In this document: piece by piece, positions 4,512 through 22,245 of the stretch
How positions within the stretch are numbered: the stretch's first letter is position 1
How the letters are laid out: each line of letters opens with the position of its first letter
Assembly (NCBI GenBank): GCA_051652685.1
Contig: JBOFUS010000149.1
Span: forward strand, 1 to 50,315
From: Beijerinckiaceae bacterium
GTDB taxonomy: Bacteria > Pseudomonadota > Alphaproteobacteria > Rhizobiales > Beijerinckiaceae
Reading direction: 5' to 3'
Length of the DNA: 50,315 bases
Notes under the pieces: generated by a model
The model's input: only the letters and a program-made list of their open reading frames with translations
Database searches by the model: none
What the model was told of the DNA's origin: nothing
Made by a program: the position numbers and the translations under genes

Positions 4512-4565
4512 GGGCGGGAAAATCCTTGCAGCTGGCCGGCCGCGCCTTGTGGGACACAAGCCCTG

Positions 4566-5015: not shown

Positions 5016-5074
5016 TGCTTTTCTCCCCTGGGGTGAGAGGGGCCGGTGCACAACCCGCCCCTCGGCTTGCGACG

Positions 5075-7853: not shown

Positions 7854-7869
7854 AGCAATCGATGTGCCA
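7854..7869 (-). promoter_or_regulatory. sigma54 (-24/-12) promoter motif, perfect consensus, upstream of the ABC ATPase gene
   Basis: Minus strand reads TGGCAC-ATCGA-TTGCT, only 12-18 nt from the ATGs at 7842/7836. An 8-bp palindrome TGTGCACA lies at 7956-7963, upstream. Confidence 0.6.
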
Positions 7870-7963: not shown

Positions 7964-9091
7964 TTACAGGGTCACTGCCCGCGCCAGAGGCAGAAGCTCC
8001 CGCGCAATGATGACAGCGACTGGACCGCCGCCGTCCGGGCCTTGATGTTCCGCACCGCCGGAGACGAAGATTTCTGCGTGCCCCACGAGCCCCGCAAGCG
8101 CGCCTGCCACAAAGGCGCGGGCATGACGCGTGGCGGAAACATCGCTGTCATCCAGCATGGTGTGGCGATGGCCGCGCAGTTGCCCGGTCGTCGAGGGTTC
8201 CGCCTTGGCCAGCACGGCCACAAGCCGTTCACGGCTTGCCCCGGACAACTGCCCCGCGGTCGGCAGGCCAAGCCGGGCCATGGCCGCGCGCACGGGCTCA
8301 ATGTCGATACTGTCTGCCATGACCGCGTGATCCACTGCCAGCAACCCCGACCATGCGGGCGACATGCCGAGCACGACAATCTCGTTGTCCATGAGTTCGA
8401 TGCCGGCGGAGGTGGAGGCGCGGTCTGACCACAACGAAAGATCCGTGCCGATCACAGCATCGGACAATTGGTCCTCCGTGAGTTCGCCAAGCGCCAGCGC
8501 AACGCCAAGGGCTGACGCCCCCCGCGAAATGCCCATGGACTTGAGCGTATCGCGCACCGCCGTTGTCTGGCCGCGTGCCGCCGCATCGCCCATGCGGGCA
8601 GCAGTCAGCAGCGGGCACTTGATCTGGACGAAATGCACCTCGTCGGCTTGCGAGATGCCGGCGTCCGCCATGGCGTCCCGCACGGCTGCGGCCACAGCTT
8701 CCACCTGTTCCATGCGGCCGATTTCCTCCGGCAGGAGCGTGCGGCTGCGGGCACGGCCCATGGCGAGCGCCGGCGAGGTGCCCGCCCCGACCGCCTCGCG
8801 GCGCTCCAGCAACAGCCAATGCGGCGAAAGCCCGCCCTCCGTGCCGCCGGACATGACGCAGCACACCGCACGCGCCTGCGCGTCCGGCAGATGCCGCTTC
8901 AGCTCCAGCATCAGCGACTGTACGGCGAAGGCGCGCGTGAAATCGTTCACGCAGCCATTTCCCTCGGTCTTGCCAAGGATGGCAACAATGCCGTGCGGAT
9001 CGATGAGACCATCGGCGATGGCAGCGGCAAGCCCTGATACATCATTGGGCGCAGCTGCGGGAATGCGGTGGACGAAGGCGCGGCGTTTCAT
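7964..9091 (-). CDS. Ring-opening amidohydrolase of the cyanuric acid hydrolase / barbiturase (AtzD/TrzD) family
   Basis: ATG at 9091 (MKRRAFVHRIP). Family motifs GKTEGNGCVNDFTRA, MSGGTEGGLSPH, VHFVQIKCPLLT, SRGASALGVALA and VSGGAEHQGPDGGGPVAV are present. 375 aa, full length. Confidence 0.85.
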   Translation of the reverse strand: MKRRAFVHRIPAAAPNDVSGLAAAIADGLIDPHGIVAILGKTEGNGCVNDFTRAFAVQSLMLELKRHLPDAQARAVCCVMSGGTEGGLSPHWLLLERREAVGAGTSPALAMGRARSRTLLPEEIGRMEQVEAVAAAVRDAMADAGISQADEVHFVQIKCPLLTAARMGDAAARGQTTAVRDTLKSMGISRGASALGVALALGELTEDQLSDAVIGTDLSLWSDRASTSAGIELMDNEIVVLGMSPAWSGLLAVDHAVMADSIDIEPVRAAMARLGLPTAGQLSGASRERLVAVLAKAEPSTTGQLRGHRHTMLDDSDVSATRHARAFVAGALAGLVGHAEIFVSGGAEHQGPDGGGPVAVIIARELLPLARAVTL

Positions 9092-9092
9092 G

Positions 9093-10109
9093 TCAGCGCA
9101 GATAGACCTCGGGTTCGCCATGCTCGGCCAGCAACGCGGCGAGGCGCTTGCGCATGAGCATGCCAGGTTTATCGGAGGGCATGTGCGCCTCGACCTTGCG
9201 CCCCATGTCCACGGGCGTGTCGGGATCGGTCGATTCGAGGATATCGCGGTCCTCCTCCAGGATTGCCGCATCCCAGGCGCGCAGCTCTTCCGTGGAGCAA
9301 TCCTCCTCCCGGTCGTTGCGGAAGAGCACCTGCGCGAGGCTGATCGTGCCGTCATCGACGGGTGTGGCGCAGTTCATGATGATATGGCGAAGGCCCGACG
9401 GATAGGCCATGTCGAGTCGCCGGCAGAAAGGCATGTACCATTTGTTGCGCATATGGCGCTGCGTCGTGGGCGCCGTGCTGCCGGTCACACGGTGCGCCTT
9501 CGGCGGGTTGTTGATGTCGATGATCGTCTCGGCCTCGAAGCCGTAGTCCGTCTCCTCGATCTCGTACTTGGAGGGCTTGGGCGCATTCAGCTGGCCGAAG
9601 GTCGCCTTGTGCACAAAAGAGAAATGGGCGTTGTCGAAGGAGTTCTCCATCATGCGTAAGGGCGCGGTCTTCCACGTCTGATGGAACTGCATGATGCGGC
9701 GGTATGCGGGGTCCTCGTCCTCCGGAAAGGCCGGAATATCCGTCGCGGGCTCGCCGAGACAGACCCAGACATAGCCGTATTTCGCTTGTGCCCGGAACGC
9801 CTTGACGCCCAGCCGCGGCACGATCTGGTCCGGCGTGAACTGCGGAATTTTGATCAGCGTGCCCTGCCGGTCATAGGTCCAGCCATGGTAACCGCAGGTG
9901 ATCAGGCCATCTTCCACCCAGCCCTTGGAGAGCTTCGCCGTGCGGTGGCAACAGCGGTCTTCCAGCGCGGCGGGGTTTCCCTCACCATCGATGAAAAGCA
10001 CGATCTGCTCGCCCATGAGCGTGAAGGCCTTCGGCCCGTCGGCGAGGCTCGATAGCTGGTGAGTCGCGTACCAGTAGTTGCGGAAAACCTTCTGTTTCGT
10101 CGTCAGCAT
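9093..10109 (-). CDS. Rieske [2Fe-2S] non-haem-iron oxygenase, catalytic subunit (class IA/VanA-PaO-like size)
   Basis: ATG at 10109 (MLTTKQKVFRNYWY). Rieske motif CCHRTAKLS...CGYHGW; mononuclear iron motif DNAHFSFVH. The stop is 1 nt from the AtzD-family start. Confidence 0.85.
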   Translation of the reverse strand: MLTTKQKVFRNYWYATHQLSSLADGPKAFTLMGEQIVLFIDGEGNPAALEDRCCHRTAKLSKGWVEDGLITCGYHGWTYDRQGTLIKIPQFTPDQIVPRLGVKAFRAQAKYGYVWVCLGEPATDIPAFPEDEDPAYRRIMQFHQTWKTAPLRMMENSFDNAHFSFVHKATFGQLNAPKPSKYEIEETDYGFEAETIIDINNPPKAHRVTGSTAPTTQRHMRNKWYMPFCRRLDMAYPSGLRHIIMNCATPVDDGTISLAQVLFRNDREEDCSTEELRAWDAAILEEDRDILESTDPDTPVDMGRKVEAHMPSDKPGMLMRKRLAALLAEHGEPEVYLR

Positions 10110-10148
10110 GGTGGTCGCTCGCTGATGTGGTTTGGGTGAATTGCCGAT

Positions 10149-10169
10149 GCGTCTCGAAGCACCCACAAC
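10149..10169. repeat. Solo terminal half-arm of the ~120-bp palindromic intergenic repeat
   Basis: gcgtctcgaagcacccacaac matches the outer arm (cgtctcgaagcacgcacaac) of the elements at 14909, 19307 and 25119. Confidence 0.45.
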
Positions 10170-10197
10170 GCCAATGCCAGGGACCCCGCCACCCATC

Positions 10198-11541
10198 TCA
10201 GCAACAGCCGATGCGGTCGCGGTAGTAGGCGATCAGCGCCTGATCTAGATGCGGCCAGGCAGCAAGGAAGGGCTCGCGCGTCGGCATCTGGCGGCGGTAG
10301 CGCGCGCGCATCTCCGCCTCGATTCCCGGCAGATCGACACCCAGAACGCGGCCATCCTCGACGATCACTTTCCCGTCCGCCGTCACGCGCCTGACATGCG
10401 CCTGCGTTGCGCGGGCAAAAATGTAGTCGATCGGCGCGACTGGCATGATGGCGTCGCGGTCAAGCGCGTTCATGTCAATTTCGACGCTGTCGTCACTCTC
10501 GGCTGCACCGTTGGCGACCCTGCCGTGGCGAATGGAGCCAGCCAGATAGGCCTCGCGGCCGACATTATCCTCGTAGCCCCAGCCCGCATGCAGGAAATGC
10601 CCGAGCCTGATCTCGCGCAGCATGTCGTCGTCCTCGTCGAGCGCCGAGCCATCGAGCCCGACTGCCACCTTGCAGCCCATGCGGATCGCCTTGCCGATGG
10701 GGGCGACGCCGGAGCGCAGGTGCAGATTGGAGCTGGCGTTGGTGGCGATGGTCGTGCCGCTCTCGGCGATGAGTTCCAGATCGCTGTCGCTGGCGTAAAC
10801 GCAATGGGCCAGCGTCAGGCGCGGCGACAGCAGGCCGATGTCCTTGAGATACTGCGCGGCACCTTGCGGGCAGTTCGCATCCGCCCAATCGCGCTGATAG
10901 CGCGTTTCGAGGAAATGCATGTGCACGCGCCGGCCTGTGTGGGCGGAGGCTTCCGCGATCTGTTCAAGCAGCGGACGCGAGCACCATTGCAGGCCGCTTG
11001 GGCCATATTGCACGTTGAAGCGCGGGCCATGGGCGGCGGCGGCCACCGCCGCGACGAGCTCCATCTGGGTGTCGATGGAGAGCATCGGCGCGCCAAAGAT
11101 CGCCATGATCGCGTCGCGCGCCGCATCCGGCAGGCGCGCGGCCATTGCAGAATGATCGCCATAGACCAGCGGGTTCATGTCCCGCATGGCGATGGCAAAC
11201 GCCACCTGCACGCCGACATCCGCACCCGCTTTCGCCACGAGGACGGCCTCGTCGACGTAGGACATCGGTCCGTGCGCGCGGGTGTAATGCGCCATGATCG
11301 ATGTGCAGCCGGATCGCGCCGCGCGGGCGAAAGGGGCTGCAGCGGCGTTGTACGGATCCTGCGGCGTCATGGCCGCGAGCCGCAACAGCCAGCCCTCGAG
11401 CGGCCGGTTGGCCGCGCCGAACGAGGTCGGTGACAGCGGCCGCGCGTGGTCATGCGCGTTGGCAAAGCCCGGAAGCGTGAGAACGCCCGGCGCGAAACCG
11501 GTGTCCGCGCCGGGCATCAATCCTTCAAGACCCGCTGTCAT
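10198..11541 (-). CDS. Metal-dependent amidohydrolase (deaminase/chlorohydrolase-like, TRZ/ATZ-type superfamily member)
   Basis: 447 aa. N-terminal HxH metal motif in PGFANAHDHAR, followed by LEGWLLRL. ATG at 11541, 3 nt after the stop of binding protein 2. Confidence 0.75.
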   Translation of the reverse strand: MTAGLEGLMPGADTGFAPGVLTLPGFANAHDHARPLSPTSFGAANRPLEGWLLRLAAMTPQDPYNAAAAPFARAARSGCTSIMAHYTRAHGPMSYVDEAVLVAKAGADVGVQVAFAIAMRDMNPLVYGDHSAMAARLPDAARDAIMAIFGAPMLSIDTQMELVAAVAAAAHGPRFNVQYGPSGLQWCSRPLLEQIAEASAHTGRRVHMHFLETRYQRDWADANCPQGAAQYLKDIGLLSPRLTLAHCVYASDSDLELIAESGTTIATNASSNLHLRSGVAPIGKAIRMGCKVAVGLDGSALDEDDDMLREIRLGHFLHAGWGYEDNVGREAYLAGSIRHGRVANGAAESDDSVEIDMNALDRDAIMPVAPIDYIFARATQAHVRRVTADGKVIVEDGRVLGVDLPGIEAEMRARYRRQMPTREPFLAAWPHLDQALIAYYRDRIGCC

Positions 11542-11544
11542 CGC

Positions 11545-12588
11545 TCAGTTCGTGACCAGCTTGATCATGCGTTCGGCTGGCGGCGGGAGCGCCACGCGGC
11601 TGAAGACTTCCGCAATTTCCGGCTTCCTTGGCAGCGAGAAGGCGGCGGCGACCGTGTCGATGGTTGCGGTCAGGCGCTTGTCGTCGATATCGCCAAGACC
11701 CTTGGCGGCGGATTCCGGCGTCAGCATCTGCTTGTTGAAGGCGAGCATCATGCGGCGCTTCTCGATCTCCTTGTTGATCAGCGGCTCCGCCTTGACCAGC
11801 GAGTCGATGCAGGCATCGGGCGTGGCCGCACAGTCGCGGATGGCGCGGTTGACGGCGCGCACCAGCCTCTTCACGGCGTCAGGCTGCTCCTTCATCATCT
11901 TCTGCGACACCATCACACCGTTGGAATAGAGATCAAGCCCATAGTCGCCGAAGTAGAAGCAGCGGAAATCCTTGTCGGGATCCAGCTTCTGCGCGACGAT
12001 GTTCATGTAGCTGGTGACAGAAAAACCGGCGATGATATCGACTTGGTTCTGCAGCAGCATGGTCTCCTGCATGTTGGGAGCCATGTTGAGGATCTTCACC
12101 TTGTCCGGATCGAGGTTGTTGATCTTCATCAGCGGTGCGAACAACCGCAGCGCGATGGAGCCTGCTGGCGATCCCAGCGTCTTTCCCTCAATGTCCTTCA
12201 GCGAATTGATGCCGCTGGTGTTCCTCGTCACCAGCGCGAAGGGCGGCTGGTTGTAGATCTGGTAGACCATCACCGGCTGCTCGCCGGGCTTCTGCGCCGC
12301 GTTCTGGAGAATGGCACCCAAGTCCCCAAAGCCCGCATCATAGGCCCCGCTCATGATGCGGCTGACGGTCACGCCGGAGCCCTCGCCCTGATCGATGGCG
12401 ACATCGAGCTTCTCGGCGGCGAAATAACCCTTGTCCTGCGCATGATAGTACCAGGCGTGGATGCCCTGGATCTTCCAGTCGAGCGTGAACCTGATCTTTG
12501 TCGGGGCCTGCGCGGTAGCGCTGCCTATCGTGGCGGCTCCGATGGCGGCGGCAGCGAGAAGGCGCTGGGCAATGGCGCGGAAAAGCAT
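11545..12588 (-). CDS. NMT1/THI5-like ABC substrate-binding protein, paralogue 2
   Basis: ATG at 12588 (MLFRAIAQRLLAAAAIGAATIGSATAQ), then KIRFTLDWKIQGIHAWYY...DQGEGSG. Clearly paralogous to 5075-6118. Confidence 0.85.
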   Translation of the reverse strand: MLFRAIAQRLLAAAAIGAATIGSATAQAPTKIRFTLDWKIQGIHAWYYHAQDKGYFAAEKLDVAIDQGEGSGVTVSRIMSGAYDAGFGDLGAILQNAAQKPGEQPVMVYQIYNQPPFALVTRNTSGINSLKDIEGKTLGSPAGSIALRLFAPLMKINNLDPDKVKILNMAPNMQETMLLQNQVDIIAGFSVTSYMNIVAQKLDPDKDFRCFYFGDYGLDLYSNGVMVSQKMMKEQPDAVKRLVRAVNRAIRDCAATPDACIDSLVKAEPLINKEIEKRRMMLAFNKQMLTPESAAKGLGDIDDKRLTATIDTVAAAFSLPRKPEIAEVFSRVALPPPAERMIKLVTN

Positions 12589-12618
12589 GGCGGACCTCCG
12601 TGAGTTTGCGGCGGATGC

Positions 12619-12634
12619 AGCAAGCTCCATGCCA
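12619..12634 (-). promoter_or_regulatory. sigma54 (-24/-12) promoter motif upstream of binding-protein paralogue 2
   Basis: Minus strand reads TGGCAT-GGAGC-TTGCT, 31 nt upstream of ATG 12588, inside a 52-nt intergenic gap. Confidence 0.6.
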
Positions 12635-12640
12635 GTCTCT

Positions 12641-14059
12641 TCAGCCGGCCAGAACGGCAGCGAGGCTCTCATCGATGCGCCGGGGCGCAGGCGCTGGCAT
12701 CCGCTGTACCGCGTGAACCGACCGGCCAGTCCCTCGCGCCTCCTCCACCAGCTTGCGGGCCTTCATGACGAAACGCCCGCGGGAAAGCGTGTGGATGGGC
12801 AACCCTTTCACCCGGACGCCATGAAACGGCGTCACGCGCGCGCGAACCGAGTGCAGCCTCGCCTCGTCGATGACATCCTCGGCGGACAGGTCGATGATCG
12901 CAAGATCGGCATGCGCGCCAACAGCGATACGCCCCTTCGCAGCCAGCAAGCCGAAGGTATTGGCCGGATTGAAGGCGGAGATCCGCACGTAGTGTTCAAG
13001 GCTGAGGCGACCCTCGTTCACCGTCGTCAGCATCAGCGGCATCTGCGTCTCGACACCGGGAAAGCCTGCTGCCGCCTCCCAGATATCAAGGTTGCGCTTC
13101 TCCTCCGGCGTGTGCGGTGCGTGGTCAGTCGCGATGCAGCCGATGGTTCCGTCGATGAGCGCCCGCCAGAGCTCCGCCTTGTGATGCGGCTCGCGCACGG
13201 GCGGGTTCACCTTGATGATCGGCCCAAGCCGCGCATAGTCGTCACTGTCGAGCATCAGATAGCAGGGGCAGGTCTCGCCCGTGACATCGACACCGCGCGC
13301 CTGCGCCTCGCGCAATGGACGAAGCTCGTCTGCCGATGAAATATGCAGCACATGGATGCGCGCGCCCGTCCATTCCGCGAGCACTGCCGCGCGGCTGACA
13401 GCCTCGACCGCGACAACCGCGGGCCGCGCTGCGAGGTGATCGAGCGGCGCACTCCTGCCCGCCGCCATCAGGCGTGCCTGCCGCCAGGCCATGATCGAGG
13501 CGGTTTCCGCATGCAGCGCGATGCGATGGCCATGCTTCGCAATGATCTCGAAACCTTCCAGCATCGCGCCCGTGGAGGGCGACGGCAGGTTGCCGGTGGT
13601 GTTGCCCATGAAGCACTTGAATGCCGCCGCCCCGCCGGTGATCAGAGCTTCCAGATGCTGGATATTGTCTTCCGCCAGCAGGCCATAGAGGCCGAAGTCG
13701 ATGCGCGCCGTCTTCGCCCGCGCGAACTTGTCGGCCAGCATCTCCGGCGTTCCTGTGGGCGGAAAGGTGTTAGGCATCTCGAACACGGTGGTCACCCCGC
13801 CCATCGCGGCTGCCGCCGTGCCGGTGTCCCAGTCTTCCTTGTGCGCCATGCCGGGATCGCGGAAATGCACATGGACATCGATGGCACCGGGCAGGATGTG
13901 CAGGCCTGCCGCATCAAGCGTCTCGCGTGCCGGCCCCAGCGTCCCGGGCGATGTGATGGCGGCGATGGTTTCGCCGCGCACACCGATATCGGCCGGGTAT
14001 CGTCCTTCATGCGTGACGACGGTACCGTTCAGGATGGCGAGATCGAAGGGTGAGGTCAT
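12641..14059 (-). CDS. Cyclic amidohydrolase (allantoinase / dihydroorotase / hydantoinase-like)
   Basis: ATG at 14059 (MTSPFDLAILNG). Motifs DVHVHFRDPG, MPNT, AAFKCFMG (carboxylated-Lys context), ALHAE, HVLHISS and ATDHAPH. The 769-aa track ORF is a shadow-extended artefact. Confidence 0.85.
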   Translation of the reverse strand: MTSPFDLAILNGTVVTHEGRYPADIGVRGETIAAITSPGTLGPARETLDAAGLHILPGAIDVHVHFRDPGMAHKEDWDTGTAAAAMGGVTTVFEMPNTFPPTGTPEMLADKFARAKTARIDFGLYGLLAEDNIQHLEALITGGAAAFKCFMGNTTGNLPSPSTGAMLEGFEIIAKHGHRIALHAETASIMAWRQARLMAAGRSAPLDHLAARPAVVAVEAVSRAAVLAEWTGARIHVLHISSADELRPLREAQARGVDVTGETCPCYLMLDSDDYARLGPIIKVNPPVREPHHKAELWRALIDGTIGCIATDHAPHTPEEKRNLDIWEAAAGFPGVETQMPLMLTTVNEGRLSLEHYVRISAFNPANTFGLLAAKGRIAVGAHADLAIIDLSAEDVIDEARLHSVRARVTPFHGVRVKGLPIHTLSRGRFVMKARKLVEEARGTGRSVHAVQRMPAPAPRRIDESLAAVLAG

Positions 14060-14070
14060 GGGATTGTCGC

Positions 14071-14862
14071 TCACAGCGCGGCCCAGCCGCCATCGACAGG
14101 CAGATCGACGCCGGTGATCTGGCGAGAGACATCGGACGCCATGAACAGGCAGGCGTTCGCCACGTCCTCGTCCAGCGTGATGCGCTTCAGCGCGTAATCT
14201 CCCGCGTGCCGCGCGGCGGCTTCGTCGTGGCTGATGCCGAGTTTCTTCGCCATGGTCGGCACCACCTTGTCGCGGAAGCGCGGCCCATCCACCATGCCCG
14301 GCGCCACGCAATTGACGTTGATGTTGTGCTCGCCCATCTCCAGCGCAAAGCTCTTGGTGATGCCGCGCAGCCCCCACTTCGAGGCGGAATACGCCATGCG
14401 GCCGGCGCGCCCGCGCATGCCGAAGGTGCCACCGACGTTGACGATCTTGCCATGGCGCTGCGCGATCATGGCGGGAGCCACCGCGCGCATGGTGTGAAAG
14501 CAGCCGTTCATATTGAGCGTCACGATCTCGTCGAATTCTTCCGGGCTGGTTTCCCAGCCGGTCTTGCCCATGGGGCCGGAACCGCCAGCGACGTTGACCA
14601 GGATATCGATGCGGCCAAAGGCCGTGATCACGGCCTTCGCCATGGCATCGCAGGCGACGGCGTCCGTCAGATCGCAGGGTATCACGATGGCCTTTCGGCC
14701 CATGGCAATCACCTCGGCTGCCACCGGCTCGATGGCGGCGGTGTCCCGCCCGACGAGCGCGAGATCGCAGCCCTCGACGGCGAAAGCGCGCGAGATCGCC
14801 GCGCCCATGCCCTTGGCGGGTCCGGTGATGACGGCAATCTTGCCGGTGAGGTCGAGATTCAT
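14071..14862 (-). CDS. Short-chain dehydrogenase/reductase (SDR)
   Basis: 263 aa. Cofactor motif ITGPAKGMG; catalytic YSASK; NVNCVAPG. Confidence 0.85.
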   Translation of the reverse strand: MNLDLTGKIAVITGPAKGMGAAISRAFAVEGCDLALVGRDTAAIEPVAAEVIAMGRKAIVIPCDLTDAVACDAMAKAVITAFGRIDILVNVAGGSGPMGKTGWETSPEEFDEIVTLNMNGCFHTMRAVAPAMIAQRHGKIVNVGGTFGMRGRAGRMAYSASKWGLRGITKSFALEMGEHNINVNCVAPGMVDGPRFRDKVVPTMAKKLGISHDEAAARHAGDYALKRITLDEDVANACLFMASDVSRQITGVDLPVDGGWAAL

Positions 14863-14908
14863 AGGTTGCTCTGTTCGTGCGGGGGTCGCTGATCGGATTG
14901 GGGCTGGC

Positions 14909-15029
14909 GTTGTGCGTGCTTCGAGACGCGCCTTTGGCGCTCCTCAGCATGAGGAATGTTCGCGCATTCCACTTTCAACATTCCTCATGCTGGGGAGGCG
15001 CAGTAGCGCCGTCTCGAAGCACGCACAAC
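14909..15029. repeat. ~120-bp imperfect palindromic intergenic repeat (REP/RIME-like), copy A
   Basis: Arms gttgtgcgtgcttcgagacgcgcctttggcgctcctcagcatgagg ... cctcatgctggggaggcgcagtagcgccgtctcgaagcacgcacaac. Nested sub-palindromes gcgcc-ttt-ggcgc and cctca-gca-tgagg. Confidence 0.8.
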
Positions 15030-15059
15030 ACCCCGGCTTTTCGTGCACCAGGCCGAAGG

Positions 15060-16100
15060 TCAGACCCCCAGCGTCCTGATCCGCTCCGCCGCCGTCGGAA
15101 GAAACTGGCGCGTGAAGATCTCTTCAGGAGCCGGCACGCGTGGCAACTGGTTCGCCTCCGCCACGATGGCGATGCCGCGCTTGAAGCGCGCATCGTCCAC
15201 GTCGCCGATGCCGATTGTCTTCGCCTCGGGATGGCTCATCTCGGCCTTGAGCGTCGCGATCAGCCGCGCCTTCTCCACATCCTTCTTGATCAGGGGCTCG
15301 CGTTTCGCCACCGCGTCCACCGCCTTGTCGAGATCTTTCAGTGTCTCGACCAACCCCCGGTTGAAGGCCCGCACGATGCCCGAAACCGCCTTCGGGTTGT
15401 CCTTCGCCAGCTTGCGGCTGACGACAAGCGTGTTCGAGTACAGGTCCATCCTGTGATCGACGTAGTTGATGAAGCGGAAGTCCTTGTCCGCATCGATGCC
15501 GGCGAGTTTCGCCGAGAAGGTGATGGTGTTGACGAAGCCGAAGACGCCATCAACCTGGCCGCGCTGCAGCATCTGCTCGCGCAGGTTGGGCTGCATGTTG
15601 GTGATCGTCACCTTCGAGGCGTCGATGCCGGCGAGTTTCGCGAAAGCGGGAAACAGCTTCAGCGCCGCATCGTTGGCCGGCCCGCCGATGGTCTTGCCCT
15701 CCAGATCCTTCGCCGTCCTGATCGGGCTGTCCGCTTTGACCGCGATGGTGAAGGGCGGGTTGTTGAACATGGCATAGACGGCGATGGGCGCGTCGGCAGG
15801 GTTCTTCGACGCCAGATCGATCAGCGCGTTCATGTCGCCGAAGCCGACGTCATAGGCCCCTTGCGCCACCTTGGTGATCGCGGCGGCCGAACCCTCGCCC
15901 TGGTCGATATCGAGCTCGACGCCTTCGTCCTTCAGGAAGCCCAGGTCCTGCGCCTGGAAGAACCAGCTCTGCGGACCTTGGTAGCGCCAGTTGAGGATCA
16001 TCTTGAGCTTCGTCATTTGCGCGGAGGCCGGAAATGGCAGCAATTGCGCGGCCCCGGCGGCGAGGCCAGCAGCGATCATGGAACGACGGGACAGGTTCAT
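15060..16100 (-). CDS. NMT1/THI5-like ABC substrate-binding protein, paralogue 3 (Tat-like signal)
   Basis: ATG at 16100 (MNLSRRSMIAAGLAAGAAQLLPFPASAQ), then KLKMILNWRYQGPQSWFF...DQGEGSA. More divergent paralogue of the other two. Confidence 0.85.
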   Translation of the reverse strand: MNLSRRSMIAAGLAAGAAQLLPFPASAQMTKLKMILNWRYQGPQSWFFQAQDLGFLKDEGVELDIDQGEGSAAAITKVAQGAYDVGFGDMNALIDLASKNPADAPIAVYAMFNNPPFTIAVKADSPIRTAKDLEGKTIGGPANDAALKLFPAFAKLAGIDASKVTITNMQPNLREQMLQRGQVDGVFGFVNTITFSAKLAGIDADKDFRFINYVDHRMDLYSNTLVVSRKLAKDNPKAVSGIVRAFNRGLVETLKDLDKAVDAVAKREPLIKKDVEKARLIATLKAEMSHPEAKTIGIGDVDDARFKRGIAIVAEANQLPRVPAPEEIFTRQFLPTAAERIRTLGV

Positions 16101-16185
16101 TGCAATGGCTCCCGGCACGGTTGATGTCCGCGTTCGCGCGCGGCGTGCCCGGAACCGCGCGTGCTGGATTGGTGGTCCAGAACGA

Positions 16186-16201
16186 TGCAATACCCGTGCC
16201 T
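16186..16201 (-). promoter_or_regulatory. sigma54 (-24/-12) promoter motif upstream of binding-protein paralogue 3
   Basis: Minus strand reads AGGCAC-GGGTA-TTGCA, with GG-N10-GC spacing intact, 86 nt upstream of ATG 16100. Confidence 0.5.
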
Positions 16202-16209
16202 AACCGCCG

Positions 16210-16947
16210 TCAGTGGTGTTCTTGCGGGGCACCGAGCAGCCGCCGGAGTTCCTGCGAAAGCCCGACCGAGTCGACGGGCCTGGGCTGCGGGCCAACCTGA
16301 ACGGTTCGCGCACTCGCGACCACGGCTTCGAGCCCCGCCATGACGGAACAGATGACATCGACGCCGGCAAGACGTCCGACAGGTTCGGCGAGGCCGAGCA
16401 TCCCGACGCCGCCCAGAATCACCGCATCCGCGCCGTCCTCGCGCACGCAGGCGAGGCACGCTTGCGCCAGCAAGGCGATCGCGCCATCGGGATCGTGCGC
16501 AATCATGCTACCATCAGGCGCGACTGTGCGGATCGACGCGAGATACTCCGTCAGGCCGCGCACCACCAGGCTCTCCCGCAGCATCGGCTCCCAGAGAACG
16601 CCCCCTGTTACGATCGAGAAGCGCCGCCCGCCGCGCGATGCTTGCCTTGCAGACGCTTCCACAAGGCCGATCACGGGAACCTCAGCCACTTCGCGAAGGG
16701 CATCGAGCCCCGGATCGCCAAAGCACGCGAGAAGGACAATGTCCGCGCCGCCACCATGGGCCGCGAACGCATCGAGCGCCGCGTGCCCCGCGACGGCAAA
16801 GGCGGCCCGGCTGGCGATGTAGCGCGGACCAAAGCTGCCACTGAACGCGCTGATGGTCCAGGACATTGGCAGGAAAGTCTCCGACGCCTGCCGGACCTTC
16901 TCCGTCATCGCGTCGGTCGTGTTGGGATTGATGATCAGGAGTCGCAT
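16210..16947 (-). CDS. Asp/Glu/hydantoin racemase-superfamily protein lacking the second catalytic cysteine
   Basis: ATG at 16947 (MRLLIINPNTTD). First thiol motif LLACFGDPGL is present. The second motif reads ILGGVGM where the in-window paralogue (38193-38843) has VMGCAGM. Confidence 0.8.
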   Translation of the reverse strand: MRLLIINPNTTDAMTEKVRQASETFLPMSWTISAFSGSFGPRYIASRAAFAVAGHAALDAFAAHGGGADIVLLACFGDPGLDALREVAEVPVIGLVEASARQASRGGRRFSIVTGGVLWEPMLRESLVVRGLTEYLASIRTVAPDGSMIAHDPDGAIALLAQACLACVREDGADAVILGGVGMLGLAEPVGRLAGVDVICSVMAGLEAVVASARTVQVGPQPRPVDSVGLSQELRRLLGAPQEHH

Positions 16948-17026
16948 CTGTCGCCCAGCGGTCAGGAAGCGCCGCATCGACACTGTCACCCGGCCGGTTC
17001 GCCGCGCGCAAGGGGACATTCGATTC

Positions 17027-17042
17027 TGGCATGCAGGTTGCT
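17027..17042 (+). promoter_or_regulatory. Orphan sigma54-type motif on the plus strand
   Basis: TGGCAT-GCAGG-TTGCT. It points into a gene remnant and antisense to atzH/atzE; no intact plus-strand gene lies downstream. Confidence 0.4.
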
Positions 17043-17062
17043 GGTATTGAACCAACCGGTGA

Positions 17063-17275
17063 AGTACCGCCGATGAAGCACTGCCGATGGCGGTGATGTA
17101 TGCCGGCCAGTTCGTCGAAACGGGCGCAATCCGCGATCCGCTTTATCCCTAAACGAAGGGTCTGCTCGCCGCGAACCTGCATGGCGCGGTGAAGGGTGCG
17201 CGGCTCGATTCCATCCCTGGTGCTCCACCGGCACTCGACACCGCGCGATGCCGTCAGGAGGCCGGCGTCTCCATC
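17063..17275 (+). pseudogene. Remnant of the C-terminal part of an oligopeptide/dipeptide-type ABC ATPase (DppD/OppD-like), with an in-frame stop
   Basis: Own translation: STADEALPMAVMYAGQFVETGAIRDPLYP*TKGLLAANLHGAVKGARLDSIPGAPPALDTARC. It matches the conserved tail VMYAG..VE......P.HPYT.GLL.......L..IPG.PP.L. It has no N-terminal ABC domain, and TAA replaces the Tyr of HPYT. Confidence 0.6.
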
Positions 17276-17658
17276 ATCAGGCTTACATGGGCGGCGACCA
17301 CGCGCCAGCCCAGCGCCGTGCGCATCCAGACCTGGCTCTGCCGGCCTATCTTGCCTGCCATCGCGGGCCGGCGAAACAGCGTCCAGGCGGTTGCCATGTC
17401 GCGTCCGTAAGTTGTGATGACCGTCCGTTCCAGCGTGCGTTCCAGCCCGACGGAGGGTCGCGCGGCGCGGAAGGCCGCGATCTCGGCGTAGCCGTAAAGG
17501 TTCTCGCCGACCCCGTAGCGCACGGTGGTGGGCGCATCCAGAAACAGCCAGTCGAGTGTCGCCACATCGTTGTTGGTCAGCGCGGTCTCGTATTCCGCGA
17601 AGGCCGCCTCCACCTCGGCCTTCACATCCGGCAAATCGATCTCGGGCATCGTCATCAT
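17254..17658 (-). CDS. atzH: AtzH-like NTF2/SnoaL-fold protein (DUF3225; 1,3-dicarboxyurea amidohydrolase family)
   Basis: About 131-134 aa: [36 protein letters not shown]...[12 protein letters not shown]. Three candidate ATGs at 17658, 17655 and 17649; AAAGGA favours 17649. It follows the AtzE-like gene by 4-13 nt. Confidence 0.75.
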
Positions 17659-17662
17659 CCTT

Positions 17663-19081
17663 TCACGCCACGCGCGACACGGCCGCGCCATCCTTTTCAA
17701 GTGCCGCCGCAATGCGCAGCGCGATATCCTCGCGGCCAGGTGCCGCCACGATCTGCACGCCGATGGGCAGGCCCTGCGCGGTCCATGTGGGCACAACGAC
17801 CACCGGCCAACCGATGAACGAGATCGGCTGCGTGTAGAGCCCGAGGTTGGCGCGCACCGGCAGCATCTGGCCGTCGATCTCGAACATCGTCTGATCGACA
17901 AGCGGCGCGACGGTAGGGGTGGCGGGAGCAAGGAAAGCATCGACATGGTCGAAAATCTTCAGGCTTTCCCGCTGGAACCAGCGGCGGAAGAGCTGCGCCT
18001 TGGCGTACCAGCCACCCGGCAGCAGATTGCCGGCAATCAGCCGGTCGCGCACCTCCGGGTCGAAGTCGCCCGCCCGTTCACGCAACCGGTCGGCATGCAG
18101 CGCGCCGCCCTCGATCATTGTAATAATGAATGCGGCAGCGCGTGCCCGATGCGCCTCGGGCATCTCGATGGTCGCGGTCGCGCCAAGATGCGCAGCGAGG
18201 GTATCAACCGCAGCGAAAGCCTCAGCTGTTCCCACGCGGCGGAAATAGCCTCCCGCAACGCCGATCCTAAGGCTGCCAAGCCCCTTTGCGAGCTCTGGCA
18301 TCACGGGCGAAGCCGGCGTCCTGCGGCAGACGGGATCAGCCGCATCCGGCCCCGCCATGGCGTCGAAGGCCAGCGCCAGATCGATGGCCGAGCGGGCCAG
18401 CGGCCCCAGGTGATCGAAACTCGCGACGAAGGGGAAGGTCCGCGCCCGCGACAACGCGCCATACGTCGGTTTCAGGCCGAAAAGCCCCGAGAGCGACGCC
18501 GGCACGCGGATGGAACCATTGGTATCCGAGCCAAGCGTGATCGCCGCAAGCCCGCCCGCTGCGGCGGCACCCGAGCCGCCCGACGATCCGCCGGTCATCC
18601 GCGTCGTGTCATGCGGGTTGCGCGCGTGGCCGTCGTGGGCGTTCCGGCCGGTGAAATCATAGGCATATTCGCCCATGTTCAGCGCGCCCAGCAGCACCGC
18701 GCCGGCCGCCTCCATGCGTGTGATGAGCGTCGCATCCCTCGTCGCCGGCGCGCGCTCACGGTTGATCAGCGATCCCGCCCGCGTCGGCAGTCCCACAACA
18801 TCGAACAGGTTCTTGACAGCGAAAGGCACGCCCGCAAGCGGCGGCAGCGCCTCGCCCTTCGCATGGGCCGCGTCGATGGCGGCGGCCTTCGTGAGGGCGC
18901 GGCTGGCGGTGATGTCGGTGTAGGCGACCAACTCCGGGTTGCGCGCTGCGATGGCCGCCAGATGCGCGTTGGTCACGGCCATGGCGCTTGTCTGGCCAGC
19001 GCGGATGGCAGCCGCGATGGCATGGGCGGGTTCTCTGGTCCAGTCGGTCATGGCTGTATTGTTCATGGCCCTATCGTTCAT
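17663..19081 (-). CDS. atzE: AtzE-family amidase-signature amidohydrolase (1-carboxybiuret hydrolase-like)
   Basis: 472 aa. Motifs [22 protein letters not shown] and [12 protein letters not shown]. The start codon overlaps the stop of the small upstream ORF (ATGA at 19078-19081). Confidence 0.8.
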
Positions 19082-19278
19082 GGCTTGGCCTCGCAGGCGT
19101 CGAACACCGGCGCGGGCTCCGCCTCGTCATCGAGGGGAAAGGACAGGAAAAGCGGGGCGAGGCGGAAGGCCACCGCGACATTGGCCGCCACCGCCGCCGG
19201 ATCAGCCGCGTCGAGCGGCAGATCGAGCGCCTTGGCCATGGCGTGGGTATAGGCTTGAGGGTCAAAGGGTTCGGTCAT
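19078..19278 (-). CDS. atzG: AtzG-like small subunit (DUF4089, GatC-like partner of AtzE)
   Basis: 66 aa: MTEPFDPQAYTHAMAKALDLPLDAADPAAVAANVAVAFRLAPLFLSFPLDDEAEPAPVF. Size, position and translational coupling to the AtzE-like gene fit. Confidence 0.65.
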   Translation of the reverse strand: MTEPFDPQAYTHAMAKALDLPLDAADPAAVAANVAVAFRLAPLFLSFPLDDEAEPAPVFDACEAKP

Positions 19279-19306
19279 TGCTCCAGTTCCTCCATGCGGC
19301 TCTGGC

Positions 19307-19415
19307 GTTGTGCGTGCTTCGAGACGGCGCTTTGCGCCTCCTCAGCATGAGGACCGTTGTTGCAACGGCCCTCATGCTGAGGAGCGCCAAAGGCGCGTCT
19401 CGAAGCACACACCAC
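19307..19415. repeat. ~110-bp palindromic intergenic repeat, copy B (inverted relative to copy A)
   Basis: gttgtgcgtgcttcgagacggcgctttgcgcctcctcagcatgagg ... cctcatgctgaggagcgccaaaggcgcgtctcgaagcacacaccac. It fills the atzF-atzG spacer almost exactly. Confidence 0.8.
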
Positions 19416-19417
19416 AC

Positions 19418-21223
19418 TCACGCCAGTGACTTGATGTAGGCCCGCCAGCCGCCATGGCGCGAGATAGCCTCGGCCCCCTTCAGGCCCTCGGGCTCGACGA
19501 GAAAGCCCTTGGGCGTGGTGCCATCGGCCAGCCGCAGCGTGCCGATGCCGAGCGGCGACGGGATGCCCTGCACGAAGCGGCCGAAGCCTTCGGGCGGCAA
19601 CGCCCAGACCTCGGTGAGCACCGGCGCACCGGTGCCGTCCGCCACGCGCAGCAGCCCCGGCCGCTTGGGCGGGCCGCCGGCGAGCGCGTGAAAGCGGTAG
19701 TCGGCAGTGGTCGCGACCGCACGGCGGCAGACGCCGCCGTTGCCGGTGAGCTCATGGTTCAGCGGCATGCCGGAAAGATGCGCGCCGACCACGACGATCT
19801 CGATCAGGCCGTCGTTGCCGGCGGTCGTCAGCGGCGACAGCGCCGGCGTCTCCGTCGCGCTGCCGCCCAGTCCCACACCGGAAGCCGCGTGGAACATCTG
19901 GCCGAAGGCCGCGAGCCTGCCATCATGTCCCGAAGGCGCAATGAAGGTCAGCCCCGCCGCGCGTCCATCTGATCGGAATGGCCCCGGCACGGCGAGTGCC
20001 GCCAGATCGAGCAGGTTGACGAAGTTGGTGTAGGTGCCGCAGCGGCTGTTGGGCGTGATCGGGTCGGCGTCGAGATCGGCCAGCGTCGGCGAGACGGGTG
20101 TGGTCGGCACGGCGAGCATCGAGATCGATTTCCACACCGGCGCGGTGAGGCGCTTCAGTTCCTGCAGCCGGTACTGCGCCCTGAACAGCGCACTTGCCGA
20201 GAAACCATCCGCACCCGCGATGATCTTTCGTGTCACCGGATGGACGATGTCGGGATCGCGCGCCAGCACATGGGCGATGGCCGCGTGGCGTTCCGCCACC
20301 CATGGGCCTTCGTAGAGGAGCGCCGCGACCTCGAAGAAGGGCGTCAGGTCGACGGGCTTGAGAGTGGCGCCCAAGCGCTCAAGCTGAGCGACACCGGCGC
20401 GCCACGCCGCTTCCTGCATGGCATCGCCGAAGAAGCGGAGATCTTCCTCGCGCGGAATGCCGATCACAGGTGTCGGCTCGGCCGCCGCCGCTCTGGGCGG
20501 AATGGCGCGGCTGTAGGGATCGGCAGGGTCATGGCCGGCCATGACGGTATAGGCCTGCCACGCATCGTCAACGGTCAGCGCGAAGACCGAGACGCAATCG
20601 AGCGTGCGGCAGGCGGGCAGCACGCCCGCCATCGAGACGGCACCGACGCTGGGCTTCAGCCCGACGATGTTGTTGAGCGCCGCCGGCACGCGGCCGGAGC
20701 CTGCCGTATCCGTGCCGAGCGCAAAGCTGACCAGCCCCTGCGCCACCGCGACCGCCGAGCCAGACGATGAGCCACCGGGAACGAGCGCCGGATCGATGGC
20801 GTTTTTCGGCACCGGATAGGGCGTGCGCACGCCGACGAGGCCCGTCGCGAACTGGTCGAGGTTCGTCTTGCCGATCAGGATCGCGCCCGCAGCACGGAGT
20901 TTGTCCACCACAGTCGCGGAGACCTCCGGAACATGGGCGAAGCCGGGACAGCAGGCGGTCGTTGGCAACCCCGCCACGTCAATGTTGTCCTTGACCGCGA
21001 AAGGGACGCCCCAGAGCGGCAGCGAGGCAACGCGGGGCGGCAAGGCCGCTGCCGCCGCCAACGCGTCCGCCTCGGGCAGAAGTGTGATGAAAACGCCCGG
21101 ATCGTCGAGCGCCGCGATGCGTCGATAGACCTGCGCCACGATGTCGTGCGGCGTGCCGCCCTCATCGTAGAAGGAGGCAAGCGCGGGCAGCGTTGGCATT
21201 GCGGGGAGGATGGGAACGGTCAT
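19418..21223 (-). CDS. atzF: Allophanate hydrolase (amidase-signature N-domain plus C-terminal domain)
   Basis: ATG at 21223 (MTVPILPAMPTL), 601 aa. Motifs GVPFAVKDNID, GGSSSGSAVAVA and GTDTAGSGRVPA. The start overlaps the stop of the upstream ABC ATPase (ATGA). Confidence 0.8.
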   Translation of the reverse strand: MTVPILPAMPTLPALASFYDEGGTPHDIVAQVYRRIAALDDPGVFITLLPEADALAAAAALPPRVASLPLWGVPFAVKDNIDVAGLPTTACCPGFAHVPEVSATVVDKLRAAGAILIGKTNLDQFATGLVGVRTPYPVPKNAIDPALVPGGSSSGSAVAVAQGLVSFALGTDTAGSGRVPAALNNIVGLKPSVGAVSMAGVLPACRTLDCVSVFALTVDDAWQAYTVMAGHDPADPYSRAIPPRAAAAEPTPVIGIPREEDLRFFGDAMQEAAWRAGVAQLERLGATLKPVDLTPFFEVAALLYEGPWVAERHAAIAHVLARDPDIVHPVTRKIIAGADGFSASALFRAQYRLQELKRLTAPVWKSISMLAVPTTPVSPTLADLDADPITPNSRCGTYTNFVNLLDLAALAVPGPFRSDGRAAGLTFIAPSGHDGRLAAFGQMFHAASGVGLGGSATETPALSPLTTAGNDGLIEIVVVGAHLSGMPLNHELTGNGGVCRRAVATTADYRFHALAGGPPKRPGLLRVADGTGAPVLTEVWALPPEGFGRFVQGIPSPLGIGTLRLADGTTPKGFLVEPEGLKGAEAISRHGGWRAYIKSLA

Positions 21224-22245
21224 GTCGTGCTGATGTCCATGGCGAAATGGCAGGCGGCGTGGCGGTTGGGCGTGATCGGCGCGAGCGTGGGCATCGCCTT
21301 GCCGCACAGCGCCTCGCCGCGTGGGCAACGCCCGAAGAAGCGGCAGGCGTCGGGATCGGGATCGACGGGGCTGCGGATTTCGCCCTTGAGGCGAATGCGG
21401 TTTTCGGCTGGCCGGGCGGCATCCGGCACGGCGTCCACCAGCGCGCGGGTATAGGGATGCTGCGGATTGGCGAAAACCTCCCGCGCGGGGCCGCTCTCCA
21501 CGATCTTGCCGAGATACATCACCAGCACGCGGTCGCAAAGCAGGCGCACCACGTTGAGATCATGGCTGACGAAGAGATAGCTCATGCCAAGCTCGCGCTT
21601 GAGCTGATCCAGCAGCTGGAGGATCACCACCTGCACCGAGACATCGAGCGCCGCTGTCGGCTCATCCAGAATGAGCAACTCCGGCTCCACCGCGACAGCG
21701 CGCGCGATGCCGACGCGGGCGCGCTGGCCGCCTGACAGCTGGTGCGGGAAGCGCGACAGCAACTCATACGGCAATCCGCAGCGTTCCGCCGCCTCCTCCA
21801 CCTTCGCCGTCAGCGCCGCGCCCCGCAGGCCGCGCAACCGCTTCAGCGGATCGGCAATGGCGGCGAAGGCCGTGTAGCGCGGGTTGATGCTCTCGCCCGC
21901 GTCCTGGAACACCATCTGCACGCGGGCGCGGTCTGGCGAAGCAGCGAAGCGTTTGGCCGGTGTGTGGGTCAGCTCGCGGCCGGAAAGCCGGATGCTGCCC
22001 TCGCCGTCGATCAGCCGCGAAACGAGGCGCACCAGCGTGGACTTGCCGCAGCCGCTCTCGCCGACGAGTCCAACGGTCTCGCCCTTGCCGATGGTGAAGC
22101 TGACGTCATCGACCGCGTGCAGGCGCGGCGCGGCCTTCGGGCCTTCGCGAAAACGCCGGACAAGCTGCATCGCCGCGTTTCCCGGTTGCGGCAGCACGTA
22201 GCGCTTCGACAGTTCCGCCACATCGAGGAGGGGTTCGGGCCTCAT
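21220..22245 (-). CDS. Peptide/opine/nickel-type ABC transporter ATP-binding protein (DppF/OppF-like)
   Basis: ATG at 22245 (MRPEPLLDVAEL). Walker A GESGCGKST, LSGGQRARV, ILDEPT. Confidence 0.9.
   Translation of the reverse strand: MRPEPLLDVAELSKRYVLPQPGNAAMQLVRRFREGPKAAPRLHAVDDVSFTIGKGETVGLVGESGCGKSTLVRLVSRLIDGEGSIRLSGRELTHTPAKRFAASPDRARVQMVFQDAGESINPRYTAFAAIADPLKRLRGLRGAALTAKVEEAAERCGLPYELLSRFPHQLSGGQRARVGIARAVAVEPELLILDEPTAALDVSVQVVILQLLDQLKRELGMSYLFVSHDLNVVRLLCDRVLVMYLGKIVESGPAREVFANPQHPYTRALVDAVPDAARPAENRIRLKGEIRSPVDPDPDACRFFGRCPRGEALCGKAMPTLAPITPNRHAACHFAMDISTT

Follow-up and report, generated by a model that had tools for sequence, protein, structure and literature searches.

The question raised by contig JBOFUS010000149.1 of a Beijerinckiaceae bacterium (assembly GCA_051652685.1; the 50,315 nucleotides analyzed are called the window below) is why genes for the mineralization of cyanuric acid lie there among further hydrolase, oxygenase and transporter genes, and what these neighbours might feed into the known pathway. 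In that pathway AtzD converts cyanuric acid to 1-carboxybiuret, AtzEG forms 1,3-dicarboxyurea, AtzH forms allophanate and AtzF releases NH3 and CO2; biuret and triuret are handled by BiuH, TrtA and TrtB. Cyanuric acid hydrolases are present in many soil and plant-associated bacteria. Cyanuric acid itself has been treated as a compound with no known natural source (PMC4051656). An earlier note on this DNA had described the ring-mineralization genes as linked on the DNA to additional amidohydrolases, oxygenases and transporters, a description that was confirmed, and had taken an amidohydrolase-Rieske oxygenase-AtzD trio as the functional core. Based on comparison with related loci, the conserved element appears instead to be a cassette with the order binding protein, short-chain dehydrogenase/reductase (SDR), allantoinase-like protein, ATP-binding cassette (ABC) transporter, binding protein and TRZ-type amidohydrolase, followed by AtzD, by a 2-oxoglutarate (2OG)-dependent oxygenase beside atzGEH and biuH, or by the amidase FmdA. 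We consider the chances about even that the region is a nitrogen-scavenging island in which these feeder enzymes turn imported nitrogen heterocycles into cyanuric acid or (carboxy)biuret for the known pathway. The observed basis of this proposal is made up of gene identities, synteny, conservation and promoter motifs, from which step order, deaminase chemistry, NtrC-type control and substrate class were inferred.

The ring-opening enzyme was identified first by its family scores. The product of atzD gave 557 bits with the NCBIfam cyanuric acid amidohydrolase equivalog NF052395 (cut-off 360), and 464, 373, 360, 358 and 331 bits with five solved cyanuric acid hydrolases as against 247 bits with barbiturase. 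The best match was the enzyme of Azorhizobium caulinodans ORS 571 (chain 4NQ3; PMC4051656), which is approximately 70% identical over its full length and with which all regions of the three Ser-Lys dyads (GKTEGNG, SGGTEGG, KCPLL, SRGAS, AKAEP and SGGAEHQG) could be aligned. Assignment as a barbiturase or as an enzyme of novel specificity was ruled out by the curated-model scores and by the ranking against solved structures. Judged by these alignments, the window AtzD is a canonical cyanuric acid hydrolase. Since it is canonical, the ring which it opens is most likely cyanuric acid itself and not the substituted ring proposed earlier, and any unusual substrate would most likely be converted to cyanuric acid beforehand.

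The remaining genes of the pathway were found on the same strand, where the earlier annotation had placed them, and both the 601-residue AtzF and the ATGA overlap of atzG with atzE were correct. AtzE gave 466 bits with AtzE of Pseudomonas sp. ADP (chain 6C62), and AtzF possesses the amidase and C-terminal domains and lies above its equivalog threshold. All five functions of the atzDGEHF genes of Pseudomonas sp. ADP (Esquirol et al. 2018, PMC6219798) are therefore represented with strong family scores, and in both organisms atzG overlaps atzE with atzH next to it. An allophanate hydrolase gene that lies on the strand of atzGEH, upstream of it, and has ABC transporter genes in its vicinity is likewise among the published arrangements (PMC6219798). 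Unlike in Pseudomonas sp. ADP, atzD of the window is 8.6 kb away from atzGEH and within a different, conserved cassette, the genes are arranged in units with sigma54-type motifs and not in one operon, and the host is an alphaproteobacterium. A further difference concerns atzF: its start and the stop codon of the preceding Dpp-type ABC ATPase gene overlap, which makes atzF the last gene of that transporter operon.

Open reading frame (ORF) listing, translation and Pfam and NCBIfam scans placed every gene under discussion on the minus strand of the window, which has a G+C content of about 65%. From high to low coordinates the order is the Dpp-type ABC operon with atzF last, atzG, atzE, atzH, a racemase-family gene, SBP2, the SDR gene, the allantoinase-like gene, SBP1, the TRZ amidohydrolase gene, the Rieske gene, atzD, an ABC ATPase gene, a permease gene, SBP0, a cupin gene, a 2OG oxygenase gene and a Bmp-type transporter (SBP0 to SBP2 denote binding-protein genes). 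The spacers of 3, 88 and 1 nt reported for the unit that runs from SBP1 to atzD proved to be right, as did the Rieske start at 10109, which agreed with the alignment of homologues. The cluster does not stop at atzD: the ABC ATPase gene follows 121 nt downstream on the same strand and the permease, SBP0, cupin, 2OG oxygenase and Bmp-type genes continue from there. The cupin, the 2OG oxygenase, the ABC transporter of the cassette and FmdA, itself one of the conserved genes, had all been missed in the earlier inventory.

The Rieske protein is a single alpha subunit in which the iron ligands C53/H55/C72/H75 and D159/H162/H167 were invariant among homologues. Its nearest solved relatives were SxtDIOX, SxtT, NdmA and NdmB, with E-values of 1e-27 to 1e-38. 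The methylxanthine N-demethylases NdmA and NdmB and the saxitoxin hydroxylases SxtT and SxtDIOX have the same arrangement of a Rieske and a VanA_C-like domain in one alpha subunit, and all act on nitrogen-rich heterocycles; their relation to the window protein is distant, and no reductase gene was located near the latter. The family is very large in the Hyphomicrobiales (more than 2600 homologues). In an alignment-based scan of species-representative genomes, from which the best 80 of more than 565 confirmed loci were kept, the Rieske gene adjoined atzD only in the two nearest relatives (87-88% identity). The usual context consisted of an NMT1-ABC importer, a PRK12393-type amidohydrolase different from that of the window, and a flavin adenine dinucleotide (FAD)-linked oxidase. 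AtzD-family genes were present within 10 kb in five of the 80 loci, two of them being divergent and adjoining a module of Rieske, NMT1 and amidohydrolase genes: that of Bradyrhizobium rifense (region 11044-17960 of L054; 50% identity) lies in a set of molybdenum hydroxylase, AtzD-like protein, FAD monooxygenase, glyoxalase and amidase genes, and that of L047 (region 11155-18597; 41% identity) follows ATP-dependent hydantoinase A/B genes. The molybdenum hydroxylase/AtzD-like/FAD monooxygenase set may represent an oxidative pyrimidine (barbiturate) pathway. By these five loci the Rieske family has a loose but real association with enzymes that open trioxo rings.

Within the cassettes, a Rieske gene beside atzD was limited to one subclade comprising the window and loci L001, L002, L081, L088 and L168, in the last of which the Rieske gene is truncated and atzD comes only after two additional genes. 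In the neighbour-joining tree L082 falls inside this Rieske-bearing subclade without having a Rieske gene itself. By this distribution the Rieske gene is interpreted as an accessory insertion between the amidohydrolase gene and atzD. The 88-nt spacer that precedes it contains a fragment of a palindromic repeat (family D14) with 81% identity to positions 19395-19430, possibly a scar of the insertion.

These data bear directly on the proposal that the AtzD-family enzyme opens a substituted or related ring, a substituted cyanurate or barbiturate, which the amidohydrolase and the Rieske oxygenase have trimmed beforehand. The tight spacing of the four-gene unit, the sigma54-type motif in front of it and the divergent AtzD-family members near the Rieske family in L047 and L054 agree with it. 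Nevertheless we regard it as very improbable, given an AtzD that passes the cyanuric acid hydrolase equivalog with its Ser/Lys motifs intact, a triplet confined to one small subclade, and sister cassettes in which the Rieske gene is missing and the amidohydrolase gene is placed directly against atzD. Because the triplet was not conserved it was rejected as a unit, and the analysis was moved to the amidohydrolase.

The TRZ-type amidohydrolase, the signature gene of the cassette, fell below every NCBIfam equivalog cut-off (best 115 vs 609, 114 vs 532 and 99 vs 522 bits, the others from 90) and can be assigned on these scores to the TRZ/ATZ superfamily only, with no named equivalog. Residues H30, H32, H207, H209, E212, H246 and D297, corresponding to the HxH, HxxE, H and D elements, were invariant in an alignment of 13 homologues. 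The nearest solved structures were 8-oxoguanine, MTA/SAH and triazine deaminases or dechlorinases, at 43-83 bits only. The fold family and metal-binding pattern are those of COG0402-type deaminases and dechlorinases (8-oxoguanine deaminase 3HPA, MTA/SAH deaminases, AtzA, AtzB, TrzN), although the clade of the window protein has a short N-terminus and a length of 443-447 residues as compared with 475-485. Deaminase chemistry was inferred from the residues and the nearest structures together; the enzyme most likely puts oxygen in the place of an exocyclic amino, imino or amidino group on a pyrimidine- or triazine-like substrate.

More than 2600 homologues of the amidohydrolase were found, and their contexts (from genomes, from a metagenome scan and from two plasmid regions with annotation) were compared by tblastn and a neighbour-joining tree. 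Among the 73 loci with enough sequence downstream, the gene straight after the amidohydrolase was atzD in 13, a Rieske gene followed by atzD in five, a 2OG-Fe(II) oxygenase gene in 10 and fmdA in three. The AtzD-linked amidohydrolases belong to two deeply separated clades, with 71-85% and 44-48% identity to the window protein, so that the tie between TRZ amidohydrolase and AtzD extends well beyond the window. Wherever an AtzD-linked cassette had 7 kb or more of upstream sequence (nine cases), it carried the SDR, allantoinase-like and NMT1-ABC genes in the layout binding protein, SDR, allantoinase-like protein, ABC ATPase, permease, binding protein, amidohydrolase and AtzD, often with a cupin and FmdA next. 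In L082, L083 and L169 the gap between amidohydrolase and atzD is just 5-17 nt. In the window, L001 and L088 the gene order differs and the gene set is kept. The nearest loci to the window are in Hyphomicrobiales/Beijerinckiaceae genome bins, and one of the nine cassettes is that of cultured Rhodoplanes roseus. Assembly GCA_036704275.1 holds three versions of the cassette (L081, L082 and L168): in one the SDR and AtzD calls are frameshifted, in another the Rieske gene is truncated and precedes a FAD_binding_4 oxidase and an extra binding protein, and a third lacks Rieske; this may reflect a mixed assembly or an actively changing cassette.

A third, 2OG-linked clade was found in Methylocapsa sp. 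S129, Roseiarcus fermentans and eight metagenome loci. Its order is Bmp, permeases, isochorismatase, (AtzD), ATPase, isochorismatase, AtzG, AtzE, (5-formyltetrahydrofolate cyclo-ligase-like protein) and AtzH, with the amidohydrolase at the end followed by the 2OG oxygenase. One of the isochorismatases passes the BiuH equivalog. The cyclo-ligase-family gene, which is regularly embedded in the atzGEH/BiuH clusters of relatives (L081, L082, L085 and L086), between atzE and atzH or beside an isochorismatase gene, had no NCBIfam match; it occupies the place where the published carboxybiuret decarboxylase gene trtB would be expected.

FmdA closes other versions of the cassette. On plasmid p3 of Azospirillum argentinense Az39 the order is binding protein, SDR, ABC, binding protein, amidohydrolase and FmdA, with a convergent allantoinase-like gene and no atzD; fmdA likewise follows the amidohydrolase gene straight away in L137 and L142, and the FmdA of the window is 84% identical to that which closes the cassette in L083 and L084. 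That the cassette closes with AtzD in some loci and with FmdA in others suggests that its products may leave in two ways, as a trioxo-triazine ring or as a small acyl-urea. In the plasmid collection only homologues of the amidohydrolase with at most 46% identity were present; the Azospirillum FmdA variant was found there and no close annotated relative. The contexts designated type C, which comprise no more than importer and amidohydrolase along with a GntR regulator and a divergent Amidohydro_3 gene, had no conserved downstream partner.

The same amidohydrolase family thus adjoins two unrelated types of oxygenase across loci, and the window has both. Its 2OG oxygenase is 57% identical (tblastn) to the one after the amidohydrolase in the Methylocapsa locus L085, and its nearest solved structure was the EFE-like chain 9OVH (218 bits), with thymine dioxygenase among the matches. 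The window cupin is 52% identical (tblastn) to the cupin after AtzD in L083. The occurrence of two unrelated oxygenases beside the amidohydrolase suggests a step of hydroxylation or oxidative N-dealkylation that is supplied differently by lineage.

With regard to uptake, homologues of SBP0 and of the permease and ATPase next to it (83-93% identity) are inside the cassette in L081 to L084 and L088. Comparison of 5767-6043, 12237-12513 and 15749-16025 identified the three NMT1 binding-protein genes as paralogues of one another. Between SBP1 and SBP0 the identity is 60% in protein sequence and 81% in nucleotide sequence over 277 nt, from which SBP1 looks like a recent duplicate put before the amidohydrolase gene. 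SBP1 is weakly similar to the pyrimidine binders ThiY and THI5. Homologues of the SDR (75-90% identity) occupy the same position in L001, L081 to L084, L088, L131, L141 and L157. The allantoinase-like protein scored 364 bits with the allantoinase model TIGR03178 (cut-off 358) and 398 bits with the dihydroorotase model NF006559 (cut-off 482), and its nearest solved structures were L-hydantoinase 1GKR (284 bits) and allantoinase 3HM7 (275 bits). Assignment of a substrate by homology was given up for the binding protein, the amidohydrolase, the allantoinase-like protein and the 2OG oxygenase, all of which had distant or generic solved-structure matches only.

The racemase-family protein retains the first catalytic cysteine (LLACFGDPG), and the second is replaced (ILGGVGM), so it lacks the cysteine pair of the two-Cys enzymes, in agreement with its earlier description as a one-cysteine protein. 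No homologue of it occurred in any related cassette compared; it was accordingly dropped from the conserved core, and its supposed part in the pathway was not upheld.

Seven sigma54-type motifs (TGGCAC-N5-TTGCW, at most one mismatch) were observed in the window as against 1.85 expected, a number reached in none of 100 shuffles. Six are on the minus strand, 30-90 nt before the first genes of units, namely those for the Bmp binding protein, the ABC ATPase, SBP1, SBP2, FmdA and urtA. The motif before the ATPase gene is kept in L001, L081 to L083, L088 and L168, that before SBP2 has equivalents in L001, L131 and L141, and that before SBP1 has an equivalent in L088. Enrichment and conserved position support sigma54-dependent control, and the island is probably under such control, with nitrogen limitation (NtrC-type regulation) as the probable signal. 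The sigma54-driven unit described previously is plausible and would be one among several of its kind. No gene for an activator was recognized among the annotated ORFs of the window, the annotation used for this search and for that of a reductase covering part of the ORFs. Scans for sigma70-like promoters and terminator-like structures gave nothing above chance. The seventh motif (17027-17042, one mismatch) is a plus-strand site in the interval that separates atzH from the racemase-like gene, with no obvious plus-strand gene after it.

The Bmp-type transporter at the low end of the window resembles that of the triuret/biuret cluster bmpA-nupABC-trtA-biuH-trtB-atzF (Tassoulas et al. 2020, PMC7948467; layout according to PMC12625717), a binding protein of the Bmp type and permeases being the last genes before the window edge. 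In relatives the transporter is interleaved with atzD, atzGEH and BiuH/TrtA-like isochorismatases, that is, the BiuH equivalog and a second BiuH-like isochorismatase, together with the cyclo-ligase-family gene. Unlike the cluster as described, these relatives add atzD, atzGEH, the TRZ amidohydrolase and the 2OG oxygenase, and the window has no isochorismatase. No biuret hydrolase of the isochorismatase family was matched in the window by tblastn with BiuH-type queries, as had been reported before; this gap may merely be an effect of the window edge, since in relatives the BiuH-type isochorismatases adjoin the transporter that is cut here.

The proposed sequence of events is as follows. The NMT1-type binding proteins and the NitT/TauT-type ABC importer would take up a pyrimidine- or triazine-like nitrogen heterocycle, the TRZ-superfamily amidohydrolase would exchange its exocyclic amino, imino or amidino group for oxygen, the SDR would carry out a dehydrogenation and the allantoinase/hydantoinase-like enzyme would hydrolyze a cyclic amide. 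The Rieske oxygenase, the 2OG-Fe(II) oxygenase or both, depending on lineage, would perform hydroxylation or oxidative N-dealkylation. The products would join the known pathway as cyanuric acid (through AtzD), as carboxybiuret or biuret (AtzEG, BiuH) or as a small acyl-urea (FmdA), and AtzD, AtzEG, AtzH and AtzF would carry cyanuric acid through to NH3 and CO2. A triuret/biuret module of the Bmp type probably goes on past the window edge. Based on established chemistry, ammelide, 5-azacytosine or 5-azauracil, oxonate and amidino-ureas are candidate substrates.

Several observations weigh against this scheme. In 37 of the 73 amidohydrolase loci neither AtzD nor a 2OG oxygenase nor FmdA is directly downstream, and in Azospirillum and some metagenome loci the outlet is FmdA instead of AtzD; the FmdA-ended cassettes, and the roughly one-half of homologues with neither partner, indicate that the amidohydrolase family is not exclusive to cyanuric acid. 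The feeder enzymes have no characterized close homologue, so that each step would follow from family chemistry. No reductase or ferredoxin partner for the Rieske protein was recognized among the annotated ORFs of the window, the lone candidate being the flavin-reductase-like product of 35831-36496; the partner may be encoded elsewhere. The AtzEGH set is indistinguishable by sequence from the oxalurate-type HpxXYZ set: AtzH passes the HpxZ equivalog (193 bits, cut-off 135) and ties at 147 bits to AtzH (6BJT) and the Pectobacterium protein 2RCD. The adjoining allophanate hydrolase would favour the carboxybiuret over the oxalurate route. Finally, the window has at least five binding proteins of three families which, together with the several promoter motifs, fit several substrates as well as they fit one pathway.

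An alternative is a mosaic of independent nitrogen modules, in which the atz genes use free cyanuric acid, triuret or biuret taken up as such, the rest degrade an unrelated imported ureide or hydantoin (e.g. an allantoin-like compound) by a route that does not lead through cyanuric acid, and the two are neighbours because nitrogen-regulated genes cluster on the replicon. The separate sigma54-type motifs, the number of binding proteins, the AtzD-less cassette of Azospirillum, the many loci with no such partner, the score of the allantoinase-like protein just over the AllB equivalog cut-off, and the presence of urtABCDE, a dihydropyrimidinase, a hydantoin racemase and a second TRZ-like amidohydrolase in the same window are all in keeping with such a mosaic. 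It is less easily reconciled with gaps of a few nucleotides between amidohydrolase and atzD, with the recurrence of this adjacency in two distant clades, with a third clade in which the amidohydrolase lies inside the atzGEH/BiuH operon at a recurrent atzH-amidohydrolase junction, or with a gene set kept although its order differs. We hold the mosaic to be possible, though on balance unlikely; if the modules are independent, the locus would amount to nothing more unusual than part of a nitrogen-scavenging plasmid.

We also considered whether a xenobiotic pathway for man-made s-triazines or isocyanurates (melamine, ammeline and ammelide, or N-alkyl isocyanurates) had been assembled here recently. 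Here the TRZ protein would be an ammelide-type deaminase and the Rieske protein an N-dealkylase, giving cyanuric acid. The island is on a repABC replicon, has a repeat fragment at the amidohydrolase/Rieske junction and a duplicated binding-protein gene, and the Rieske and amidohydrolase proteins have N-demethylases and triazine hydrolases (AtzA, AtzB; weak matches), respectively, among their relatives. A recent origin is hard to combine with amidohydrolase identities spanning 44-85% over many environmental metagenome contigs and uncultured-genome assemblies, or with homologues in cultured Rhodoplanes, Methylocapsa, Roseiarcus and Azospirillum; no triazine-enzyme equivalog cut-off was reached, and the SDR and allantoinase-like genes have, to our knowledge, no role in known triazine pathways. 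This origin is judged improbable.

Turning again to the proposed feeder function, a natural source of substrate can be imagined. Oxidation of uric acid gives triuret and cyanuric acid (PMC7948467), a carboxamidine serving as a cyanuric acid precursor and derived from a guanine lesion appears among the references of PMC12623156, and products formed abiotically when urate or guanine is oxidized have been proposed as natural sources (PMC7948467; reference list of PMC12623156). The cassette might accordingly be a natural enzymatic route from oxidized purine or azapyrimidine debris to cyanuric acid or carboxybiuret, a suggestion which is tentative and rather more doubtful than the feeder function as such. 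If it were true, cyanuric acid would be an ordinary nitrogen metabolite of soil, which would explain why its hydrolases are widespread despite the lack of a known biological source. The downstream pathway and the atzF-atzGEH arrangement were already known, and what appears to be new is the conserved feeder cassette linked to atzD, atzGEH and biuH; no description of this combination was found in the full-text literature searched, the coverage of which was incomplete, in accordance with the earlier note. By linking a deaminase-type amidohydrolase, a dehydrogenase, a cyclic amidohydrolase, oxygenases and an importer to these genes across the Hyphomicrobiales, the cassette offers an experimentally tractable handle on the old question of the natural origin of cyanuric acid, triuret and biuret. 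Concrete proteins and candidate substrates are available, and success would yield natural precursors, unnamed enzymes of soil nitrogen cycling and catalysts for the bioremediation of triazines and ureides.

Table 1. Features of the window, in order of increasing coordinates
Feature	Position	Strand	Remarks
Two Bmp-cluster permeases	1035-2153 and 112-1035	-	run to window edge
Bmp-family binding protein	~2273-3385	-	sigma54-type motif 3445-3460
2OG-Fe(II) oxygenase	3570-4559	-	Pfam; after cupin
Cupin_2 protein	4566-5051	-	Pfam; contiguous with SBP0
SBP0, NMT1 binding protein	5075-6112	-	
Permease of NitT/TauT-type importer	6211-6993	-	
ABC ATPase of NitT/TauT-type importer	6997-7842	-	
Perfect sigma54-type motif	7854-7869	-	upstream of ABC ATPase
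atzD, cyanuric acid amidohydrolase	7964-9091	-	375 aa; PF09663, 486 bits
Rieske non-haem iron oxygenase alpha subunit, VanA_C-type catalytic domain	9093-10109	-	338 aa; Pfam Rieske and VanA_C
Amidohydrolase/Rieske spacer	10110-10197	-	88 nt; palindromic-repeat fragment 10149-10184
TRZ/ATZ-superfamily metal amidohydrolase, deaminase-type	10198-11541	-	447 aa; Amidohydro_1
SBP1, NMT1/THI5-type periplasmic binding protein	11545-12588	-	PF09084
sigma54-type -24/-12 motif TGGCATGGAGCTTGCT	12619-12634	-	one mismatch; 31 nt upstream of SBP1
Allantoinase/L-hydantoinase-like cyclic amidohydrolase	12641-14059	-	472 aa
SDR oxidoreductase	14071-14862	-	263 aa; adh_short; 11 nt upstream of allantoinase-like gene
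SBP2, NMT1-type binding protein	15060-16100	-	first gene of conserved cassette; PF09084; sigma54-type motif 16186-16201
Asp/Glu/hydantoin-racemase-family protein	16210-16947	-	PF01177, 150 bits
atzH-like	17254-17658	-	PF11533, 186 bits
atzE	17663-19081	-	NCBIfam NF006631, 670 bits (cut-off 461)
atzG-like	19078-19278	-	66 aa; PF13318, 45 bits (cut-off 24); ATGA overlap with atzE
atzF, allophanate hydrolase	19418-21223	-	601 aa; TIGR02713, 775 bits (cut-off 511), residues 43-597
Dpp-type ABC transporter operon	21220-26976	-	SBP_5 (25246-26976), two permeases, two ATPases
FmdA/AmdA-family amidase	27845-28780	-	PF03069; sigma54-type motif 28840-28855
TRZ-like amidohydrolase, second ureide-type module	34288-35718		
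Flavin reductase(-like), second ureide-type module	35831-36496		
Dihydropyrimidinase, second ureide-type module	36603-38090		NCBIfam, 707 bits (cut-off 647)
Hydantoin racemase family, two-Cys type, second ureide-type module	38193-38843		
urtABCDE-type urea ABC transporter	38865-44776	-	preceded by sigma54-type motif 44483-44498
repA (ParA-like), repB, repC replication/partition genes	45029-49058	+	window ORF annotation

The remaining features of the window (Table 1) concern the replicon as a whole. The presence of repABC genes indicates that the island is located on an alphaproteobacterial plasmid or chromid of the repABC type. The urea transporter genes urtABCDE, with the sigma54-type motif upstream, are another mark of a nitrogen-scavenging replicon. 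A second ureide-type module was located at 29019-38843 and has its own SBP_5 ABC transporter. Between operons, at 14904-15009, 19302-19415 and 25152-25238, there is an intergenic palindromic repeat some 110 nt long, the arms of which (approximately 53 nt each) are 83-96% complementary; it also gives rise to spurious ORFs.

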